A DNA stretch of 64,000 bases from an uncultured delta proteobacterium. GTDB taxonomy: Bacteria; Desulfobacterota; RBG-13-43-22. A model generated the notes under the pieces. It was not told the origin of the DNA. It saw only the letters and a list, made by a program, of their open reading frames with translations, and did not search any database. The position numbers were made by a program, and so were the translations under genes. This document shows, piece by piece, positions 16,553 to 56,140 of the stretch; the first letter of the stretch is position 1; every line of letters starts with the position of its first letter. The stretch covers positions 32,001 to 96,000 of the forward strand of contig CAVQFQ010000006.1 in NCBI GenBank assembly GCA_963711835.1. The letters are read 5' to 3'.

Positions 16553-17746
16553 TTATAGGTCCTCAAAATCAAACCGGGCCAGCCTGTCCTTTAACGCCTT
16601 GACATTCCTTTTGTCTTCCAGGGCCTTTAAAATCTTTTTTCTCCCCTCCAGGGTTCCAAACAGCAGACAACCCACGATGGCGTCATCCCTGAGGACGATT
16701 TTCCGGTAGGTTCCGGCCGCCTCATTCTTTTCCACCAGGGCCTCGAGTTTTCCATCAGGATCGATATCCCCGGCCGCCAGAAGGTCGATACCGGCCACTT
16801 TCAGCTGATTGGAGAGTGTGGTCCCCGTATAAGCCATGGGCTTGCCGACCATGGCCAGACCGGCTATTTCGCCCTGTTTTTCGGCTGCCGGCCAGATCCC
16901 GTAGAGCATTCCCCGATGTTCCACCAGGTCCCCGGCAGCATAGATACCCGGGAGCTCTGTTTCCAGGTAATCGGAAACGAGGAGACCTTTCCCGATTTTT
17001 AAACCTAATTTTTGGGCCAGGTCCAGATTGGGTCTGACTCCGGCTGAGATGATAATAAGATCGGCCTTAACTTCCCGGCCATCCTCCAGGAGAAGCCCCT
17101 GGACCTGGTCCTCCCCTAAAATCTCTTTGGAAGTAACCCCCAGGTAAAAGGTTAAGCCCATCTGTTCCAGTCTCTTTTGCAGCAGATCGGCGCAGGCCGG
17201 GTCGGTTTGCCTGGGTAAGAGTCTGGGGAAAAATTCGGCAACCGCCACCTGAAGCCCGGTTTTACGGAGGCTGTTGGCCACTTCCAGTCCCAAAAGGCCT
17301 CCGCCGATCAGGAGGGTCTTTTGCTTGCCGGCGGCAAAGGCTTTTATTTGCTGGGCATCATGAATATTGCGCAGGGTAAAGACGCCCTTTTTATCGGCGC
17401 CTTTAATAGGGGGAACAAAAGAATTGGCCCCGACCGCCAGCAGGAGTTTATCAAAAACAAAAGGCTCTCCGGAATCCGTGGTCACTTCGTGTTTATCTTT
17501 ATCCACCGCAACCACTTTGGTATTAAGAAAAAGTTTAACCCGGTTTGTTTCATACCAGGAGCCGGGGTGAATTTGCAGTTTGGGAAGCTCCACGTCTCCG
17601 GCCAGGAATTCCATGAGGCGGATGCGGCTGTAAAAGGGGAGGGCCTCATCGCTGAACATGATGATCTCCCCTTGCGGGTCCTGCTTGCGAATGGTCAAGG
17701 CCGCCGTGGTTCCGGCCACCCCGTTCCCAACGATGAGATAGCGCAT
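16553..17746 (-). CDS. FAD-dependent NAD(P)H oxidoreductase (rubredoxin reductase / NirB N-terminal-like)
   Basis: IVGNGVAG, IGGGLLGLE, IYAAGD, LKVAGIDL. Confidence 0.88.
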   Translation of the reverse strand: MRYLIVGNGVAGTTAALTIRKQDPQGEIIMFSDEALPFYSRIRLMEFLAGDVELPKLQIHPGSWYETNRVKLFLNTKVVAVDKDKHEVTTDSGEPFVFDKLLLAVGANSFVPPIKGADKKGVFTLRNIHDAQQIKAFAAGKQKTLLIGGGLLGLEVANSLRKTGLQVAVAEFFPRLLPRQTDPACADLLQKRLEQMGLTFYLGVTSKEILGEDQVQGLLLEDGREVKADLIIISAGVRPNLDLAQKLGLKIGKGLLVSDYLETELPGIYAAGDLVEHRGMLYGIWPAAEKQGEIAGLAMVGKPMAYTGTTLSNQLKVAGIDLLAAGDIDPDGKLEALVEKNEAAGTYRKIVLRDDAIVGCLLFGTLEGRKKILKALEDKRNVKALKDRLARFDFEDL

Positions 17747-17943
17747 ATAAAGGTCCTCCTCTAAAGATAATGATTAAAAAAGATCGGACTTGTTTCAGTT
17801 GGTGAAGATCCCTGAAGCCCTTCGGTTTGAGATTCACGTAACTTTGGGACTATCTCAAATTTTTAGAGCGCCTTTTTGGGGAACCATTGTATAATAATTT
17901 CCATCATGGAGATACAAAAAAAAAGGTCTCTTCCTCTTCGGCC

Positions 17944-19575
17944 ATGAAACTGGTTCTCATCCAGCCGCCTATCCGGGACTTTTACGAGTCCTCCAGCCGC
18001 CTTCAGCCTATCGGGTTGGGCTATTTAAAGGCCGCCGTAAAGAAGCATCTCTCAGGGGTCGAGGTCCGCATTTTTGATTTCCATCAGGGTTGGGGACGAA
18101 GGACCACCCCGCTGCCCAATGAACTAAGCTATCTCCGGGACTATTACCCTTGGCCGGATCAGAGCCCTTTCGCTCTTTTTCATCAGTATTATCATTTTGG
18201 AGCTTCTTTCGAAAGAGTGGCCCGGGAAGTGGCCCGGGAAGAGCCCGACCTGGTGGGGATTTCTTCCCTCTTTTCTCCCTATTACCGTGAGGCCCTTCAG
18301 TGTGCCGACCTGATTAAGAAAGAGGTCGGATGCCCTATTGTGCTGGGGGGGTCTCATGTTTCTGCTGTGCCGGAACTTATGTTGAAGCAGCCCAGTGTGG
18401 ATTGGGTGATTCTGGGAGAAGGCGAAAGACCTCTGGTGGAGCTCCTTAAGGCCTGGAAAGAAGGCCGGACCCTGGAGGAAGTCCCCAACCTGGGATTTAA
18501 GAAAGAGGGCCGCCTGATTTTCAACCCGGTCGGGGAACCCTATGCCATCGATGAAATCCCTTTTCCCGATTTGTCCGATCTCGACGGCAGGAAGTATCTG
18601 TTTGAGAAGAAGCCGTTATGTTTTGTAATGACCTCCAGGGGATGCCCCCACCAGTGTAGTTTTTGTTCGATACACCGGACCTTCCCCGGCTATCGCCGAC
18701 GTTCGACGGATTCTGTTCTGGAGGAAATAATTCACCGGGTTGAGGAAGGATTTCGAATTTTTGACTTCGAAGATGATAACCTCACCTTCGACCAAAATGA
18801 GATGAAAATCCTGTGCCGTAAACTGGATCACATGTTTCCAAAAGGAACGATTCGGTTTTTGGCCATGAACGGCATCTCCTACCAAAGTCTGGATTTGGAA
18901 CTCCTGACGCTGATGAGGAAAGCAGGGTTTACCCACCTTAATATCGCCCTGGTGAGCGCCGATTCCTCCATAAGAAGAGGCTGCAACAGGTCCGGTGATT
19001 TGGGAAAATACCTTCGCGTTGTTCAGGAGGCGACCTCATTGGGATTTAAAATGGTCTCTTATCAAATCCTGGGGCTTCCGGGAGAAAGCCTGAAGGCCAT
19101 GATCAAGACCCTGGTATGGCAGACCCGGCTGCCGGTCTTGTTGGGGGCTTCGCCCTTTTATCTCTCTCCTGAGACCCCGATTGCCAAACAATTTCCGGAA
19201 ATGACCGATGAGGATTTACTTAAATCCCGGCTCACGGCCATGGCCGTTGAAACGGATCAGTTCGAGCGGGAGGATATTTACACCCTTTTTGTGACCATTC
19301 GAATCATCAATTTCCTGAAGGGGCTCTCTGTCCCAAAGGCTCGGATCACGCTTGAAGAAGCCCTGAGGAATGCTTATAAGAAAGGGAAACGGGCTGCCCA
19401 AGGAGCGGAACTCCTTAACCTTCTTCTATCCCAAGGCGTCCTGTATGCGGCGACTTCACAAGGGTTTAAACGGTTATCAAGATTTAAAGCGAAACTGTTT
19501 CAGGAGGTCTGGGGAAAGCTGGGGGTTATCCGGACCTTGGAGGGAAAGATCATACTAATACAAGGGCAAAACTAA
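17944..19575 (+). CDS. Cobalamin-binding radical SAM protein
   Basis: B12-binding domain (QPIGL, DLVGISS, GGSH, GEGE) then TSRGCPHQCSFC and FEDDNL; start at ATG 17944. Confidence 0.9.
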   Translation: MKLVLIQPPIRDFYESSSRLQPIGLGYLKAAVKKHLSGVEVRIFDFHQGWGRRTTPLPNELSYLRDYYPWPDQSPFALFHQYYHFGASFERVAREVAREEPDLVGISSLFSPYYREALQCADLIKKEVGCPIVLGGSHVSAVPELMLKQPSVDWVILGEGERPLVELLKAWKEGRTLEEVPNLGFKKEGRLIFNPVGEPYAIDEIPFPDLSDLDGRKYLFEKKPLCFVMTSRGCPHQCSFCSIHRTFPGYRRRSTDSVLEEIIHRVEEGFRIFDFEDDNLTFDQNEMKILCRKLDHMFPKGTIRFLAMNGISYQSLDLELLTLMRKAGFTHLNIALVSADSSIRRGCNRSGDLGKYLRVVQEATSLGFKMVSYQILGLPGESLKAMIKTLVWQTRLPVLLGASPFYLSPETPIAKQFPEMTDEDLLKSRLTAMAVETDQFEREDIYTLFVTIRIINFLKGLSVPKARITLEEALRNAYKKGKRAAQGAELLNLLLSQGVLYAATSQGFKRLSRFKAKLFQEVWGKLGVIRTLEGKIILIQGQN

Positions 19576-19604
19576 CCGAAGGGAATCAAAAAGGAGGCTT
19601 ATCA

Positions 19605-20369
19605 ATGAATACAACCTTCAGTTTAAGACGAACCGTAGGATTAGTTGTTCTGTTTAATTTGGTGTTGGCCGGGAACCTCATGGCCCAGGGACAGACCTTG
19701 AATATTTACGGTCCGGGCGGCCCCTTGGGACCGATGAAGGAAGCGGCTGAGATTTTTTCGAAATCTCAAGGGGTCCAGGTAGTAGTGACGGCCGGGCCTG
19801 AAGCTAACTGGATTGGTCAGGCCAGGCAGGATGCCGACCTAATTTTTGGCGGCGCGGAATATATGCTCTCCCAGACCATGCTCGCTAATCCGGGTTTGTT
19901 GGACGAAAAAACACGGGTGAGCCTTTATATCCGGGCGGCTGGTATGCTGGTCCGGAAGGGGAATCCCAAACAGATCAAATTCCTGGCGGATTTGACCAGG
20001 GAGGGGATCAGGATCATTGATGTCAATGGGGCCGGACAACTGGGCCTGTGGGAGGACTTGGCCGGAGTCAAAGGACTGATCCCCGGCATCCAGAAAAATA
20101 TCGCCCTGTCCGTGCCCAACAGCGCCATCGCCATAGAGAAATGGAAAACCATTCCGGAGATAGATGCCTGGATCACCTACGAATCGTGGCACTATCGCTT
20201 AAGGGACATAACGGACCTGGTTCAACTGCCTGAAAAGGAAAAGCTCTATCGGGGGACCCCTATTGCCATTACTACGGTTTCAAAAAATAAAGCCCTGGCC
20301 CGGCAATTTATTGATTTTCTAAAAACCGATCAGGCCCATCAGGTTTTTCAGAAATGGGGCTGGAAGTAG
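19605..20369 (+). CDS. Periplasmic anion-binding protein, AcfC/PEB3/Paa-like
   Basis: Signal peptide; YGPGGP, ADLIFGGAE, GAGQLGLWED, DAWIT..SW. Confidence 0.8.
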   Translation: MNTTFSLRRTVGLVVLFNLVLAGNLMAQGQTLNIYGPGGPLGPMKEAAEIFSKSQGVQVVVTAGPEANWIGQARQDADLIFGGAEYMLSQTMLANPGLLDEKTRVSLYIRAAGMLVRKGNPKQIKFLADLTREGIRIIDVNGAGQLGLWEDLAGVKGLIPGIQKNIALSVPNSAIAIEKWKTIPEIDAWITYESWHYRLRDITDLVQLPEKEKLYRGTPIAITTVSKNKALARQFIDFLKTDQAHQVFQKWGWK

Positions 20370-20476
20370 ACCCAGCGTAGTCAAAGAATACTGTTTTCAC
20401 CCTATTTATTTCGTTGAACTTTTCAGGTATTATGGTTGCGGATAATGTGACCGTAGAAGGGAGGTGAAAAAACAGG

Positions 20477-20599
20477 ATGAAAAGAAAAATGTCCCCTGAG
20501 TTGTTGGCTAAGGAGGCGGCCTACTGGGAAAAGATGAAAAAGGCAATGAAAGAAATTCCTGGTAAGGTATGCCACAAGTGAAAGGGCTGAAAATCCTAA
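20477..20599 (+). CDS. Putative 40-aa selenopeptide MKRKMSPELLAKEAAYWEKMKKAMKEIPGKVCHK-U-KG-U-KS
   Basis: GGAGGTG RBS 10 nt before ATG; TGA at 20579-81 and 20588-90 in CxxUxxU spacing; TAA at 20597-99; SECIS-like hairpin follows. Not in the ORF track. Confidence 0.7.
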
Positions 20600-20601
20600 A
20601 C

Positions 20602-20618
20602 GTTGCTGGGACAGCAAC
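20602..20618 (+). promoter_or_regulatory. Candidate bacterial SECIS hairpin
   Basis: GTTGCTG-GGA-CAGCAAC, starting 11 nt after the second UGA, G-led apical loop. Confidence 0.65.
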
Positions 20619-20627
20619 CAAACCATT

Positions 20628-20688
20628 TGGCGGATAGGCGCCGGCCGATTGATGAAAAAAGGGAACCGCGCGCTTGTCCGCCATTTTT
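20628..20688 (+). terminator. Terminator-like stem-loop after the peptide gene
   Basis: TGGCGGATAGGCGC...GCGCTTGTCCGCCA followed by TTTTT; loop is long. Confidence 0.55.
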
Positions 20689-20781
20689 ATCACAGGTCCT
20701 ATTTTAATTGATCCTTTGTATTGTTCAACTTTCCTATTATTAATAAGAGCAAGAACCAGTTTACATTTTAGAAGCTGTTTA

Positions 20782-20958
20782 TCACCGCCCACTCGTCACG
20801 CCCCGGCGTGACTCGCTCAAGGCGCAGAGATCGCTAAGAGCACAATTTTTCATTTGCCTGTGAGAGGCAGGCAAATGAAAAGAGCTCATTTTGCTTTCCG
20901 CCTTCGCAGCGGAAAGCAAAAAATGTTCTTCTTCGCGTCTTTTGCGTCTTTGCGGTGA
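20782..20958. repeat. REP-like multi-hairpin intergenic element
   Basis: Ends TCACCGC/GCGGTGA; internal hairpins GTCACGCC..GGCGTGAC, TTTCATTTGCCTG..CAGGCAAATGAAA, TTTTGCTTTCCGC..GCGGAAAGCAAAA. Confidence 0.65.
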
Positions 20959-21019
20959 ATGTAAACATTGATTCGCTCTGATTAGTATTAACCTTAATCA
21001 AAGGCCTTTTCATTTCTCT

Positions 21020-22060
21020 ATGCTGACTCAAAGCACTTTCGATTTTTTTATCCAATGGCACCTGACCGAACGCTGCAACCTCCGCTGCCGGCATTGTTAC
21101 CAGGAGGGTTACGGCGGAGAGGAACTGCCCCTGATCGAAATCGTTCGAACTATTCAGGACCTGGCTGAAATGATTGACGACTGGTCCGATACCTACGAAA
21201 TTGCTTTCCAGCGCAGTTTCAATGTCACCGGCGGCGAACCCCTTTTAAGGGCGGATTTGTTCGAGATCCTGGAGATTATGGGAGACCACGGGTTTGATCT
21301 CTATCTCCTGACCAACGGAATTTTAATCGACTCTTTGAAGGCCGAGCGGTTGGCGGCCCTCCGGATCAAGGGGGTTCAGGTCAGCCTGGAGGGCCCTGAG
21401 GAAATCCATGATAAAATACGGGGGATGGGCAGCTTCCGGTCTTCCATGAAAGGTCTGGGACACCTTGTGGCTGCCGAAGTACCCGTTACCCTAAACCTGA
21501 CCCTCTCCCGGCTTAATGGGGAATTTGTGAGCCAAATGATAGAGGTGGCAAAATCAGCCGGGGCTGGACGGCTTGGATTTTCCAGACTGGTTCCTTCCGG
21601 CAAGGGGTTGGGGCTGTTACCCGAGATGTTAGGTGGGAAAGAAGTAGAAGCGATCTATGCTCAGGTCCTGTCGCAAAAACCGGAAGGGCTTGAGATCGTA
21701 ACCGGAGATCCGCTGGCTTCCCAGATGTCTTTTAGCCCTTTTCAGGAGGATTTGGGAGATATTCCCCTGGGCGGGTGCGCGGCGGGCGTCTCCGGACTCA
21801 CCATTCTTGCCGACGGTACGGTAACGCCCTGTCGCAGGCTGCCTCTCCCGATTGGAAATGTCCGGAAAGATTCATTAAGGGAATTATGGATTGCTTCTCC
21901 GATTCTTGGAAAGCTCCGGGATAAATCCGGTTACCAGGGGAAATGCGGTCGCTGCCCAAGGTGGGCCGGTTGCCGGGGCTGCCGGGCCATTGCCTATGCC
22001 TATTCCCAGGCCCAGGGCCGGCCCGATTTTCTGGCCGAAGACCCGCAGTGCTTTTTATGA
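21020..22060 (+). CDS. Radical SAM/SPASM domain protein (putative peptide maturase)
   Basis: QWHLTERCNLRCRHCYQ, TGGEP, SPASM cysteines GCAAG...PC...CGRCPRWAGCRGCRA...DPQC. Confidence 0.92.
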   Translation: MLTQSTFDFFIQWHLTERCNLRCRHCYQEGYGGEELPLIEIVRTIQDLAEMIDDWSDTYEIAFQRSFNVTGGEPLLRADLFEILEIMGDHGFDLYLLTNGILIDSLKAERLAALRIKGVQVSLEGPEEIHDKIRGMGSFRSSMKGLGHLVAAEVPVTLNLTLSRLNGEFVSQMIEVAKSAGAGRLGFSRLVPSGKGLGLLPEMLGGKEVEAIYAQVLSQKPEGLEIVTGDPLASQMSFSPFQEDLGDIPLGGCAAGVSGLTILADGTVTPCRRLPLPIGNVRKDSLRELWIASPILGKLRDKSGYQGKCGRCPRWAGCRGCRAIAYAYSQAQGRPDFLAEDPQCFL

Positions 22061-22172
22061 AGAGGCCTACGGCCCAGGGTTCAAGGTGCAAGGTGAAGGG
22101 CTTCAAAAAAGTCCAGGGTCTAGCAGGAATAGAATTCGGCCCCTTGAATCCTTGACCCCTCGGACCCTTTCT

Positions 22173-22528
22173 TTACCAGAGCCGGATAACTTTCTTTCCT
22201 TCCCTCATCTCTCCCCTGATTTTTTCCATATGCCTCAGGGCAGCCATTTCCCTTTCCAGGTCGGAAGGTTTGATTTGAAGCCTTTCGACGATCAGGGGAA
22301 ATTCAACCCCGCCCGTTTCTTCCAGATATTTCAAAATCTTTTCCTGGATCGGATTGAGGTTGACCCCGACGGTTTGTTGTTGAAAGGACTTGGCACTATG
22401 AACCGCCCAGGGATCGCACCCCTTGGCCGGCGACAGGGTGTCCATATAACAATCTTCGCACAAGGTCCGTCCGGCATGTCCCTTTCTTCACCCGGTGTAA
22501 TTTTATCGCCGCATCTTTGGCAAGTCAT
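22173..22528 (-). pseudogene. Small CxxC/CxxC + HTH-like protein, frameshifted near 22479
   Basis: MTCQRCGDKITPGEER in one frame continues as HAGRTLCEDCYMDTLSPAKGCDPWAV in another; one base missing. Confidence 0.7.
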
Positions 22529-22591
22529 CCTTAAAACCTCCTGCTCTCGTTCACATTACCCCTTGAATCCTTGACCCCTCGAACCCTCTCT

Positions 22592-24412
22592 TTAAAAGGC
22601 ATCCTCCGGGATGTTCAGTGCCGAGGTATCTTCCTGCTGGAAAGAGATATGCCGGGAAAAAACATTGGTTAAAATGTTGCGGCAGAAAAAGCGCACGGTC
22701 TCGATCTTGCCCTGATAAAAGGTTCCGCCGGCTGAAGACGGATCGGTGGTTTTCAGTTTGTCGCGGGCCAGCAGACCTTGTTCGAGCATCAATTGGGCCA
22801 GGACCGCTTCGGACATGCATTCCAGGAAGCGGGTGGCAGCCAGAGGAATAAGGTTCAGACGACCCTCCTGGAAGTATTGCATGAAGCATTTGGCATAATC
22901 GCCCAGGACCTCACCGGCCTTATAAAGCAGGGTGAAGTCCGGGGCGAAGTCGGGATCATTTTGATGGCCTTGGGCGAAGGCCAGAAGCTTGCCCAGCCAG
23001 CCCTGAAAAACCGCACCGCCGGACATCATCAGCTTGCGGCCGATCAAATCCAGGGATTGGATATAGGTAGTGCCTTCATAGATGGAGGCGCTTTTTACAT
23101 CCCGGGCGTACTGCTCAACCGGAAATTCCCGGCAGTAGCCGACGCCGCCCAGAACTTGGATGGCTTCCCGGCAAAGCAGGTAGGCGAAGTCGGAGCAGTA
23201 GGCCTTGACTAAGGGCGTCAGGAGATCTACCCATTGACCGGCTTCCCGGCGGACCGCCTCGTCGGGGTCGCAGCGGGAAACATCGGTGTTGTAATATAGC
23301 TTCATGATAAAGCCCCGCATGGCCTCGGTGCCGGCCTTGAGCATCATGAGCATACGGCGGACATCTTCGTGTTCGACGATCCTGACCCGCGGCCCCGAAC
23401 GGTTGGTGAAAAGCGGTCCCTGAACCCGTTCTTTGGCGTAGAAGCGGGCGGCGTCGTACGCGGCCGTGGCCACACCCTCGGCCAGAAGGCCGGTGCCGAT
23501 CCGGGCTTCGTTCATCATTTGAAACATCTTGGCCATACCGGTCTGGGGGTCTCCCAGGAGGATGCCCCGGCAGCGGCCGTTTTCGCCGAAGCTGAGGCCG
23601 CAGGTGGCGGAGCCGTGCAGGCCCATCTTGTGTTCGATGTTGGTGCAGAAGACGTCGTTGGGTTCTCCTAATGATCCGTCCGGGTTGACCCAGATTTTGG
23701 GTACGATGAAGAGGCTGATGCCTTTGGTTCCCCGAGGGGCGCCCTCGATCCGGCCCAGGACCAGGTGGATGATGTTTTTGGTCAAGTCCTGTTCCCCGCT
23801 GCTGATAAAACGCTTGGTTCCTTCGATCTTGTAAAACCGGGAATCGCCGGACGAGGGGTCCGGCGTGGCCTTAGTCTTGGTGTATCCCACATCACTTCCG
23901 GCATCCGGCTCGGTCAGACACATGGTTCCGCCCCAGATGCCGTTATACATCTTTTCGCAAAAGAGGGCTTTGTCCTTCTCGGTCCCGAAACTCTCGATCA
24001 GGTGGCTGGCCCCAACCGCCAGGCCGGAGTAGATTTTTATGGCCGAGTTGGCGCTGATAAAGTATTCGGCTACCTGGCCGTAGATGGTAAGCGGTAAACC
24101 CTGGCCGCCGTACTCCGCTGAAACGGCCAGGCTGAACCAGCCGTTTTCCGAGAGGATCTTCCAGCAGTCATGGAAAGAAGCCGGGACCTTTACTTTTCCG
24201 TTGTCATAAAGCAGGCCCTGCTGGTCACCGTCCTGCAGGGTCGGGCCGAGGGCTTCTTTGGCCACTTTGTAGCCTTCCTCGAGGATCATTTTGAAATCCT
24301 CCAGGCTGAAGTCCTTAAAGGCCTCGTAGGTAAGCAGTTTTTCCAGGTCCAGGTATTCAAAAAGCACAAATTTAGGATCGCGGTCATCGCGCCTGAAAAA
24401 ATTCAATCCCAT
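22592..24412 (-). CDS. Acyl-CoA dehydrogenase (long type)
   Basis: GTMCLTEPDAGSD, GTKRFIS, EHKMGLHGS, GGVGY, IYEGT. Confidence 0.95.
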   Translation of the reverse strand: MGLNFFRRDDRDPKFVLFEYLDLEKLLTYEAFKDFSLEDFKMILEEGYKVAKEALGPTLQDGDQQGLLYDNGKVKVPASFHDCWKILSENGWFSLAVSAEYGGQGLPLTIYGQVAEYFISANSAIKIYSGLAVGASHLIESFGTEKDKALFCEKMYNGIWGGTMCLTEPDAGSDVGYTKTKATPDPSSGDSRFYKIEGTKRFISSGEQDLTKNIIHLVLGRIEGAPRGTKGISLFIVPKIWVNPDGSLGEPNDVFCTNIEHKMGLHGSATCGLSFGENGRCRGILLGDPQTGMAKMFQMMNEARIGTGLLAEGVATAAYDAARFYAKERVQGPLFTNRSGPRVRIVEHEDVRRMLMMLKAGTEAMRGFIMKLYYNTDVSRCDPDEAVRREAGQWVDLLTPLVKAYCSDFAYLLCREAIQVLGGVGYCREFPVEQYARDVKSASIYEGTTYIQSLDLIGRKLMMSGGAVFQGWLGKLLAFAQGHQNDPDFAPDFTLLYKAGEVLGDYAKCFMQYFQEGRLNLIPLAATRFLECMSEAVLAQLMLEQGLLARDKLKTTDPSSAGGTFYQGKIETVRFFCRNILTNVFSRHISFQQEDTSALNIPEDAF

Positions 24413-55090: not shown

Positions 55091-56140
55091 TTAACGTAGC
55101 GTTATTTTCCCCGGAGGACCGTCCAAAATTTCTCCTATGATCGACGCGTCCGAAAGCCCCCGGGTATGCAATTTTTCAAGAAGTAGGGGAGCGCGTTCCG
55201 CGGATAGGGCTATCAACAACCCGCCCGAGGTCTGGGCATCGGACAGGATATCCAGCAGATAGGCCGGGATGGACGGGTCAACCTGCAGGGAGCGGTGGCA
55301 GTAGTTGCGGTTGGCATGGGTTCCCCCCGGCACCATACCCATCTGGGCGTACTCACGGGCAAAGGGGATGATGGGCACCTGAGAGCTGGTGATGACCAGG
55401 CAGTACTTGCTGGCTACAGCCATTTCCAGGGCATGGCCCAATAATCCAAAGCCGGTGATATCGGTGCAGCCGTGGGCGCCGATCTCCTGCATGACCTCGG
55501 CAGCAACGCGGTTCGATTCCACCATAACCGCGATCATGGCCTGCTCCGCTTCTTTGGAGGCGAACTTACCCTTCAAGGCCGTGGCGATGATCCCGGTACC
55601 TATCGGCTTGGTCAGAATCAGATGATCGCCGGGACGGGCTCCGGCATTGGTCATGACTTTATCGGGGTGTATGATCCCGGTTACCGAGAGACCATATTTC
55701 AATTCTACATCATCCACGCTGTGCCCGCCCACCAGCAAGGCCCCGGCCTCATGGATCTTTTCTAACCCCCCCTTGAGGATTTGCTTTAACACGGATTTTT
55801 CCAGGCTCTTTTTGGGAAAACAGACGATATTCATGGCGGTGAGCGGTTTGCCGCCCATGGCATAAATATCACTCAAGGCATTTACGGCCGCAATCTGTCC
55901 GAAGATATAGGGGTCGTTGACAATAGGGGTGAAAAAGTCCAGGGTCTGGATCAGGGCCAGATCCTCCCTTAGTTTGTAGACGCCGGCATCGTCCGAGGTC
56001 TCCCGGCCCACCAGCAGGTTAGGGTCGGTTTCAAGAGGCAAATCGGCTAAAATTTCTTCCAGGTCGCCCGGACCCAATTTAGAGGCTCAACCGGCCGCCC
56101 GGGTACTATCCAACAGATTAATGGGTTGGTCAGGCATCAT
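55091..56140 (-). CDS. selD: Selenophosphate synthetase, Sec-containing (UGA at 56089-56087)
   Basis: MMPDQPINLLDSTRAAG-U-ASKLGPGDL, DDAGV, DFFTP, GGHS, DAQTSGGLL; hairpin GGGTC-CGGGC-GACCT 11 nt after UGA. Confidence 0.95.

Follow-up and report, generated by a model that had tools for sequence, protein, structure and literature searches.

Only two of four neighbouring genes in the window (the whole 64,000-nt stretch of DNA that was analysed) travel together, one encoding a short peptide and the other a radical SAM/SPASM enzyme, and we give an even chance to the reading that they form a two-gene unit in which a peptide made by selenocysteine (Sec) read-through is oxidised at Cys/Sec by the enzyme in the manner of SbtM. 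The four open reading frames all lie on the + strand and encode, in order, a B12-binding radical SAM enzyme of 543 aa (17944..19575; PF02310 and PF04055), an AcfC/PEB3-like solute-binding protein (19605..20369; PF13531), a 40-aa precursor-like selenopeptide whose codons 35 and 38 are TGA and whose stop is TAA (20477..20599), and the SPASM enzyme of 346 aa (21020..22060; PF04055 and PF13186). The arrangement, with the di-UGA peptide 420 nt upstream of the SPASM enzyme, is as the sequence-only reading had described it. The gap between the peptide stop and the enzyme ATG contains a terminator-like stem with a T run behind it (20629..20689, + strand), for which sequence and fold suggest the function, and a REP-like palindromic repeat (20771..20970, no strand assigned; fold z -6.5). 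The repeat has 24 further blastn segments elsewhere in the genome and is a genome-specific insertion outside the system.

The peptide has a basic leader with the residues E13-x-x-Y-W17 and ends in C32-H-K-U35-K-G-U38-K-S, the in-frame UGAs being at 20579–20581 and 20588–20590. Because this motif pattern occurs only once in the 3.9-Mb genome and the peptide is conserved across many lineages, the reading frame is not a chance one. It is very probably, as the sequence-only reading held, a selenopeptide with two selenocysteines. The first UGA is kept in 70 of 70 loci and the second in 68 of 70. In none of the 70 has the first changed to TAA or TAG, while the true stop varies freely (TAA 28, TAG 26, TGA 16). 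Synonymous variation goes on beyond both UGAs: among 48 distinct motif strings the lysine past the second is encoded by AAA in 29 and AAG in 19 and is never replaced by Asn, with K36 present in 47 and K39 in all 48. At the second position, loci L008 and L273 show a Sec-to-Cys swap (TGA to TGC); none was seen at the first. As expected of a bacterial selenoprotein, the in-frame UGA is conserved, the coding sequence is conserved to either side of it and homologues exchange Cys and Sec. The genome also contains tRNA-Sec, SelA, SelB and SelD, and a SelA match was found in 39 of 41 further genomes tested, a count that covers pair-bearing genomes only. In one locus, L224, the peptide is degenerate.

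If the UGAs were plain stops, the product would be a 34-aa peptide ending in a single Cys and the conservation downstream would act at the RNA level. A TAA at the second Sec position in locus L061 would fit, as would the absence of any Rfam match at E ≤ 1 within 17000–23000, although this explanation is extremely improbable given a first UGA that is never exchanged for another stop, the synonymous variation past both UGAs, the two swaps to TGC and a covarying hairpin at a fixed distance. This SECIS-like hairpin (20602..20618, + strand) is predicted by folding to have a 7-bp stem and a G-initiated loop, 11 nt past the second UGA and directly 3' of the stop codon. Across the loci the invariant stem begins 12–19 nt past the second UGA and the loop is mostly G-first. 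Six stem pairs are intact in all 49 distinct versions, with compensatory changes; they were counted by script because MAFFT misaligned hairpins with 4-nt loops. Stems of at least 6 bp were present in 87 of 89 pattern matches, as opposed to 6.3 in shuffles. The covarying pairs and the spacing point to a SECIS-like stem-loop 3' of the UGA, with putative SelB binding, and both UGAs are likely read as selenocysteine with the aid of this one hairpin past the stop codon. The pair would in this respect offer a minimal test of one SECIS serving two UGAs nine bases apart from outside the frame.

Co-occurrence of peptide and enzyme, suggested earlier as a check on gene neighbourhoods, was found from either side. 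Starting from the enzyme, the peptide lies upstream in 72 of 75 loci, a count that takes in the window and duplicate genomes; starting from the peptide, 27 of 401 genomes of the phylum match, and all 27 have two TGA codons and the enzyme downstream. Three close enzyme loci (L043, L223 and L227) are without an adjacent peptide. Many anaerobic bacteria carry the pair, in Thermodesulfobacteriota and Nitrospirota, and its constant pairing of a small conserved ORF with a neighbouring SPASM enzyme is a feature of radical SAM RiPP clusters. The terminator and REP-like element between the two genes, originally raised as a caveat, lose their weight since 27 relatives have the enzyme frame at most 30 nt from the peptide stop. 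In 43 of 70 loci, the window included, the gap is 40–423 nt, variable and at times encloses a whole gene. Terminator-like stems occur in 11 of 42 long-gap loci by a simple terminator scan, which misses the long-looped stem of the window.

The short-gap clade bears on whether the ORF instead encodes a leader peptide that senses selenium and regulates the enzyme gene, at translation or transcription. There the Sec codons and the enzyme frame overlap, and a C precedes the second UGA in 3 of 20 distinct strings versus 22 of 34 elsewhere, which keeps a NUGA start overlap, although the short-gap loci are kin and this count is not independent. We regard such a role as decidedly unlikely, as the gap is long and variable in the 43 loci and conservation extends to E13 and F/Y-W17, well away from the UGAs. 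The peptide gene itself has a Shine-Dalgarno sequence (20457..20467, + strand; GGAGGTGA core, 9 nt 5' of the ATG); GGAGGTG precedes it in 56 of 69 loci, and a promoter-like site is found in 29 of 68 peptide upstream regions versus 8.1 in shuffles. A consensus scan gave no + strand promoter 5' of the peptide in the window. Contigs of RNA libraries from a single study (three runs, with word shares of 0.15, 0.07 and 0.00) overlap pieces of all four genes and one spans the peptide (20465–20633); among the contigs listed none joins peptide to enzyme, and they are no demonstration of transcription or co-transcription of the four genes.

Apart from the lineage-limited B12 enzyme, no neighbour family occurs in more than 15 loci, with labels assigned mostly by eye and protease or exporter genes possible elsewhere. 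In 15 of 108 loci a gene of the YceI family lies alongside in the same orientation. Around the loci there is no RRE/PqqD neighbour cluster, and PqqD (PF05402) was not found in three of five genomes tested. The C-x-x-U-x-x-U spacing is like that of cluster-binding motifs. Together with the lack of an RRE and, apparently, of a protease or exporter travelling with the pair, and of an all-Cys version among the 27 peptide-first matches, the YceI gene and the spacing speak for an unmodified peptide, one whose C/U/U residues form a tripod for a metal or Fe-S cluster or supply selenium, beside an enzyme acting on a small molecule. This alternative is unlikely in our view: a leader followed by a Cys tail, a strong Shine-Dalgarno sequence and the promoter-like sites fit a precursor, and enzymes of a neighbouring clade have PqqD plus a peptide.

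The earlier proposal of a four-gene cluster was rejected, since adjacency of the B12 gene to the pair is confined to one genus-level lineage, and that of the binding protein to this genome. The binding protein matches AcfC/PEB3 structures with E values between 1e-36 and 1e-33. In 9 of 14 sister-genus genomes the B12 gene immediately precedes the peptide gene, and in the window it lies 900 nt upstream of it, as would suit an enzyme that also methylates the peptide in this lineage. In the other five genomes, however, it stands without the pair, beside the same divergent oxidoreductase either directly or past a small insert, and four further genomes of the family have it at another locus. Of the genome handles that carry the pair outside the family, 35 in number, three have an orthologue of at least 50% identity, none of them beside the pair, and 17, a one-contig 99%-complete genome included, have no match at E ≤ 1e-30. 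The best NCBIfam score of this enzyme is 107 versus 575, and it falls below the cut-offs of the RiPP C-methyltransferase models TIGR03975 (65.5 versus 281.85) and ApyD (74 versus 750). Methylation of the peptide by the B12 enzyme is thus highly unlikely, and the enzyme probably takes no part in the system; nor does the binding protein.

The SPASM enzyme carries C19, C23 and C26 plus seven SPASM cysteines (253, 271, 309, 312, 318, 321 and 344). Neither a Pfam scan nor the structure model contains an RRE/PqqD domain, in agreement with the sequence-only reading. It scores under every NCBIfam cut-off. The top score is with the AhbD model (170 bits versus 500), the others of the AhbC/AhbD/NirJ set giving 112 versus 650 and 147 versus 500, and TIGR04082 (SbtM) gives 137.4 bits versus 350, over profile positions 199–515 only, so that SbtM membership was rejected. 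The feared placement with AhbC/AhbD was rejected as well (p-AU 3e-5), and F9, Q12, H14, Q120, E124 and R272, which do not vary across 16 rows of the family and 10 of SbtM, are replaced by other residues in AhbD and AhbC. The SbtM core residues are also present in a neighbouring clade in which no adjacent peptide was found. The enzyme is sister to SbtM in one quick tree (support 86) and not in a second, in which its own clade has support 97; a clade with SbtM was not rejected (p-AU 0.33). The enzyme forms a clade of its own and belongs to a second, uncurated seleno-RiPP-like pair. The genome's own AhbD, in a hemB-ahbD-ahbA cluster, scores 545, and the SPASM enzyme has no heme-pathway neighbourhood.

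From linkage and residue conservation, the SPASM enzyme probably modifies the peptide. The best guess for the chemistry, evenly poised, is an SbtM-like oxidation at Cys/Sec, by analogy with the SbtA/SbtM thio(seleno)oxazole RiPP system (TIGR04081/TIGR04082) as presented in two reviews (PMC9204691, PMC11002830), the first of which gives the chemistry and an auxiliary-cluster model. The enzyme is predicted to bind the peptide without an RRE. A selenolate would then coordinate auxiliary cluster I at its open site, there being seven SPASM cysteines for two clusters, and the deoxyadenosyl radical would abstract a hydrogen from the Sec/Cys β carbon; after two rounds a thio/selenooxazole would result, with a shift of -4 Da per site. 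Since the pair has no signal peptide and seems to lack an accompanying protease or exporter, the product would remain cytoplasmic, where it may act as a soft-metal or redox ligand; thiooxazoles are reported to bind copper (PMC11626156). Counted against this chemistry is that the Gly-Cys/Sec motif on which SbtM acts (PMC9204691) is absent: U35 is preceded by Lys, Ser or Asn and C32 by varied residues, and only U38 is often preceded by Gly.

The second choice would be selenoether formation, the enzyme making thioether/selenoether crosslinks of the sacti/ranthipeptide type, for instance between C32 and K36 and between U35 and K39 (i to i+4). The near-invariant K36 and K39, the seven-cysteine SPASM domain and top Foldseek matches that take in SkfB and CteB-type sactipeptide structures favour it, as does acceptance of Sec by PapB and Tte1186, for which a Se-Fe contact with an auxiliary cluster is described (PMC10177961). 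Crosslinking is nevertheless a doubtful candidate: thioether synthase models score far below their cut-offs (PapB 57/340, StsB 88/625, SkfB 63/300), the core residues agree with SbtM, and strict Sec coding would be wasted on a buried selenoether. The Foldseek matches (SkfB, SuiB, anSME, PqqE, CteB-type and ChlB structures) have only 16–23% identity and do not separate the chemistries. Sacti/ranthipeptide synthases (PapB, CteB, SkfB, Tte1186) share a SPASM domain with an open auxiliary-cluster site, a Cys peptide and, in vitro, tolerance of Sec, whereas the enzyme here lacks an RRE and its peptide core has no acidic acceptor.

The preferred comparison, SbtA/SbtM, shares with the pair a UGA-encoded precursor with two Sec, a downstream SECIS-like hairpin, an adjoining radical SAM/SPASM enzyme with F-x-x-Q-W-H, Q-x-S-x-E and C-R-R/K residues, and an overlapping host phylum. 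It differs in enzyme length (about 475–680 aa in the loci compared), in having about 190 extra N-terminal residues ahead of the radical SAM domain, in clade and in the (S/G)GUG motif, which is absent from the C-x-x-U-x-x-U tail; SGUG stands beside true SbtM genes. Three family peptides had no NCBIfam match at E ≤ 10, TIGR04081 included, which holds for the peptide of the window too. In one genome SbtA/SbtM and the new pair lie 4.4 kb apart. In a different neighbouring clade four enzymes stand beside short peptides ending in C-x-x-C-x-x-C (L017, L296 and L237 with a PqqD-like gene, L234 without one seen). These cassettes, unassigned to any NCBIfam family, have the same enzyme size, core residues and three-residue Cys spacing, but their all-Cys peptide lies downstream of the enzyme, the RRE is free-standing, and the enzymes (33–39% identity) form a separate clade. 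AhbD, AhbC and NirJ (TIGR04545, TIGR04546, TIGR04055) share length and fold class with the enzyme.

Table 1 of a 2026 inventory of 119 prokaryotic selenoprotein families lists one RiPP-type selenopeptide, 'Selenobacteriocin' (SbtA; motif SGUG), and no C-x-x-U-x-x-U peptide (PMC13188914). We found no description of the peptide-enzyme family in the literature searched; large selenoprotein-prediction supplements and subscription journals may contain the peptide. Tentatively, the pair may be an independent second selenium-RiPP family, in which an RRE-free SPASM enzyme makes a tridentate thio/selenooxazole metal ligand from the C-x-x-U-x-x-U tail and a single hairpin beyond the coding region drives both of the close UGA read-throughs; in the Syntrophales-type branch, the enzyme's only canonical starts overlap Cys/Sec codons, which would couple its synthesis to selenium supply. 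A further precursor, unrelated to SbtA and accompanied by an enzyme clade of its own, would bring the known kinds of RiPP-type selenopeptides from one to two, and the 40-residue peptide would offer a synthetic substrate for the assay already set up in the SbtM work. Some database entries of enzyme relatives are auto-named heme synthase, an annotation that is corrected here.

The peptide gene (20477–20599, + strand) carries TGA at codons 35 and 38, which gives the predicted product the tail C32-H-K-U-K-G-U-K-S; it is preceded by the ribosome site GGAGGTGA and followed, according to the fold, by a 7-bp hairpin (20602–20618, +). The sequence-only reading had placed it in a candidate four-gene seleno-RiPP locus, and all four genes were confirmed as open reading frames on the + strand. 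By domain scan, the first encodes a B12-binding radical SAM protein (17944–19575), which lies below every NCBIfam cut-off (best 107 against 575), and the last a radical SAM/SPASM protein of 346 residues (21020–22060); the second encodes a solute-binding protein (19605–20369) that is closest in structure to AcfC and PEB3. Also confirmed was the 420-nt gap between peptide and SPASM enzyme, within which lie a terminator-like stem and a repeat that blastn matched to 24 further segments of the source genome. Convergent with the enzyme is a small Cys-containing ORF (22173–22463, − strand) with no Pfam or NCBIfam match, found at the same position in six loci of family genomes; in the window, copies of a short direct repeat stand on either side of it, near 22140 and 22560.

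Comparative sequence evidence establishes the peptide and the SPASM enzyme as a fixed two-gene unit carrying predicted Sec-coding signals, and the proposed linkage of the two holds in other genomes. Starting from the enzyme, the peptide was found upstream in 72 of 75 loci, a total that combines two homologue sets (19 and 56), counts the window and duplicate genomes, and excludes 17 weaker matches. Locus L019 is truncated by a contig end with the hairpin still visible, L043 has no peptide within 6 kb, and L017, an enzyme-first locus without an upstream peptide, is a member of another clade. Starting from the peptide, a profile of 44 peptides matched 27 of 401 genomes of the phylum, each match with two TGA codons and each (27/27) with the enzyme downstream. 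A metagenome scan added close relatives with the peptide at L215–L221, L225, L226, L230 and L273, and at L228 at a distance of 1.9 kb; L222 shows the hairpin only, at a contig edge, the peptide of L224 is degenerate, and none was seen at L223 or L227. The named host records include Nitrospirota, Syntrophales and Geobacteraceae. Of 70 loci, 27 have the enzyme match starting no farther than 30 nt from the peptide stop. The terminator and repeat, earlier taken to separate peptide from enzyme, are therefore local additions in the window. Of 68 distinct regions preceding the peptide, 29 have promoter-like sites, where shuffles gave 8.1; none scored in the window. Two genomes have two enzyme copies each, G018 (L005 and L018, both with the peptide) and G015 (L006 and L019).

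In the 70 parsed loci the first UGA is unchanged throughout, and the second position is UGA in 68, TGC in one and TAA in one, while the true stop varies (TAA 28, TAG 26, TGA 16). A second instance of the TGA-to-TGC swap occurs at L273, on the other main branch. The codon 3' of the second UGA, compared over 48 distinct motif strings, is AAA in 29 and AAG in 19 and never AAY, so that conservation extends to the residue and is not of the bases alone. Beside these counts, the reading of the UGAs as plain stops is barely credible. Six pairs of the hairpin are intact in all 49 distinct versions, with exchanges of G-C and A-T at one pair and of T-A, C-G and A-T at another; the pair counts were reached by none of 5000 column shuffles, a kind of test that kinship inflates. 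When stems were counted without regard to letters, 87 of the 89 pattern matches had one of 6 bp or longer, where shuffling gave a mean of 6.3; both exceptions are second matches inside loci whose peptide does have the hairpin. Compensatory changes at otherwise fixed letters were seen at L037, L147, L048 and L218. The source genome has tRNA-Sec, SelB, SelA and SelD over cut-off, and a SelA match was obtained in 39 of 41 genomes (37 over cut-off), a sample in which 40 bear the pair and two handles are apparently one genome. Judged by its sequence, the peptide would qualify as a selenoprotein under the computational criteria described in the accessible text of PMC9312934. That the ORF is instead a Se-sensing leader is very unlikely. 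The SelD gene lies in the same window (55193–56110, − strand; G000:C6:87193–88110) and has one in-frame TGA of its own.

The highest NCBIfam scores of the SPASM enzyme were 170 for AhbD (cut-off 500), 147 for ACGX (400), 147 for NirJ2 (500), 142 for GeoRSP (400) and 137 for SbtM; the last, against the TIGR04082 cut-off of 350, places it outside SbtM. The source genome's own AhbD lies elsewhere and scores 545, and its AhbC-like gene (L164:1944–3127, G000:C18) is broken into two frames by an assembly error or a real frameshift. Two quick trees, which took in no ACGX, mycofactocin or SynChlorMet members, each recovered the enzyme family as one clade (support 89 and 97). Placement with AhbC/AhbD, named earlier as a result that would speak against a peptide-modifying role, was rejected as a joint clade (p-AU 3e-5); a constraint joining the family to SbtM was not rejected (p-AU 0.33), which does not demonstrate a clade. 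All 16 family rows and all 10 SbtM rows share the residues F9, Q12, H14, Q120, E124 and R272, positions at which AhbD and AhbC differ. In an alignment of 49 sequences the CxxxCxxC motif is present and seven SPASM cysteines are invariant. The structure model (pLDDT 90) begins at the first barrel strand, and thus the predicted enzyme has no RRE, as had been surmised. Its Foldseek matches were SkfB, SuiB, anSME, PqqE and ChlB, at 16–23% identity; ChlB, of 372 residues, has been solved with leader peptide and, to our knowledge, has no RRE. PqqD was found in two of five genomes, never beside the pair.

Most of the six core residues also occur in a neighbouring clade that comprises four enzymes with a C-x-x-C-x-x-C peptide beside them and at least seven for which no peptide was found. 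The four are uncurated SPASM cassettes (L017:1477–2907, L296:1057–2538, L237:1324–2734 and L234:189–1408) with short all-Cys peptides that match no NCBIfam family, and three have a PqqD-like gene. A subset of L297–L324, with L248 and L284, makes up a neighbouring SPASM clade that has the same core residues and no adjacent Cys-tail peptide within the fetched flanks. L187 (G001:C54:64000–82000) also carries a true SbtM gene, 4.4 kb away from the pair on the same contig.

The four-gene unit did not hold up in relatives. Of 20 family genomes, 18 have the B12 gene. Among the 14 of the sister genus, nine have the pair after it, and five lack the pair and have other genes there instead; in four genomes of two other genera the B12 gene lies at a different locus. 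Of 35 pair-bearing handles outside the family, 3 have a B12 orthologue of at least 50% identity, none adjoining the pair, and 17, a one-contig genome included, have no match at 1e-30. We accordingly give very little credence to tailoring of the peptide by the B12 enzyme, adjacent as the two are in one lineage. The binding protein is found in none of the 14 sister-genus genomes and, where present in pair-bearing genomes, is on contigs other than that of the pair. The simplest history would be that in one lineage the pair was inserted after the B12 gene and that the binding-protein gene was added later in the source genome. A divergently oriented NADH oxidoreductase gene with a rubredoxin-reductase C-terminal domain (16553–17746, − strand) stays beside the B12 gene across the sister genus, with the pair present or absent. 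Of the other neighbours the commonest is a YceI gene in the same orientation, adjacent at 15 of 108 loci (L042, L046, L049, L053, L054, L056, L060, L069, L080, L138, L147, L187, L220, L222 and L225). Each main branch has examples, at one locus the gene lies between peptide and enzyme, and a homologue is encoded on contig C26 of the source genome. In the 6 kb that precede the pair, 10 loci (L036, L041, L044, L052, L055, L058, L059, L062, L068 and L086) have what we take to be a glucose-6-phosphate dehydrogenase-like gene and five (L067, L070–L072 and L077) what is presumably a cytochrome c oxidase subunit I-like gene.

The layout resembles that of SbtA/SbtM, but the pair differs in enzyme score, enzyme length and precursor motif, on which membership was ruled out. 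The peptide matches no NCBIfam family; Table 1 of PMC13188914 includes SbtA (SGUG) and no C-x-x-U-x-x-U peptide family, the accessible parts of PMC11002830 and 10.1101/2022.07.06.499078 do not mention the family, and our literature searches found no description of it. We propose that a basic leader (E13, F/Y-W17) would dock onto the enzyme barrel and that the peptide Cys/Sec would bind auxiliary cluster I, as described for PapB/Tte1186 in the accessible text of PMC10177961 and proposed for SbtM in that of PMC9204691; beta-H abstraction and two oxidations could then yield a thio/selenooxazole. The Gly-Cys/Sec motif of SbtA is absent from the peptide, which counts against such an SbtM-like mechanism. 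Crosslinking of the peptide to its conserved i+4 lysines by the enzyme is unlikely, and an unmodified peptide acting as partner or Se donor distinctly more so. Copper binding by the thiooxazole peptides of bufferins (PMC11626156, accessible text) makes a soft-metal or redox role in the cytoplasm a sensible guess for the putative thio/selenooxazole product, though only a guess.

At many loci of the short-gap branch there is no canonical enzyme-frame start after the peptide stop, and the available starts overlap Cys/Sec codons. Selenium-dependent translational coupling is possible there, a lead only, because the −1 frame produces part of the pattern automatically. At L062:5948–6008 and the other short-gap loci L061–L087 the enzyme frame traverses the SECIS-like hairpin as well as the Sec codons; where the stop is TAA or TAG, every canonical start overlaps a Cys or UGA codon (NUGA), and at L061, L085 and L148–L150 an ATG overlaps the terminal TGA.
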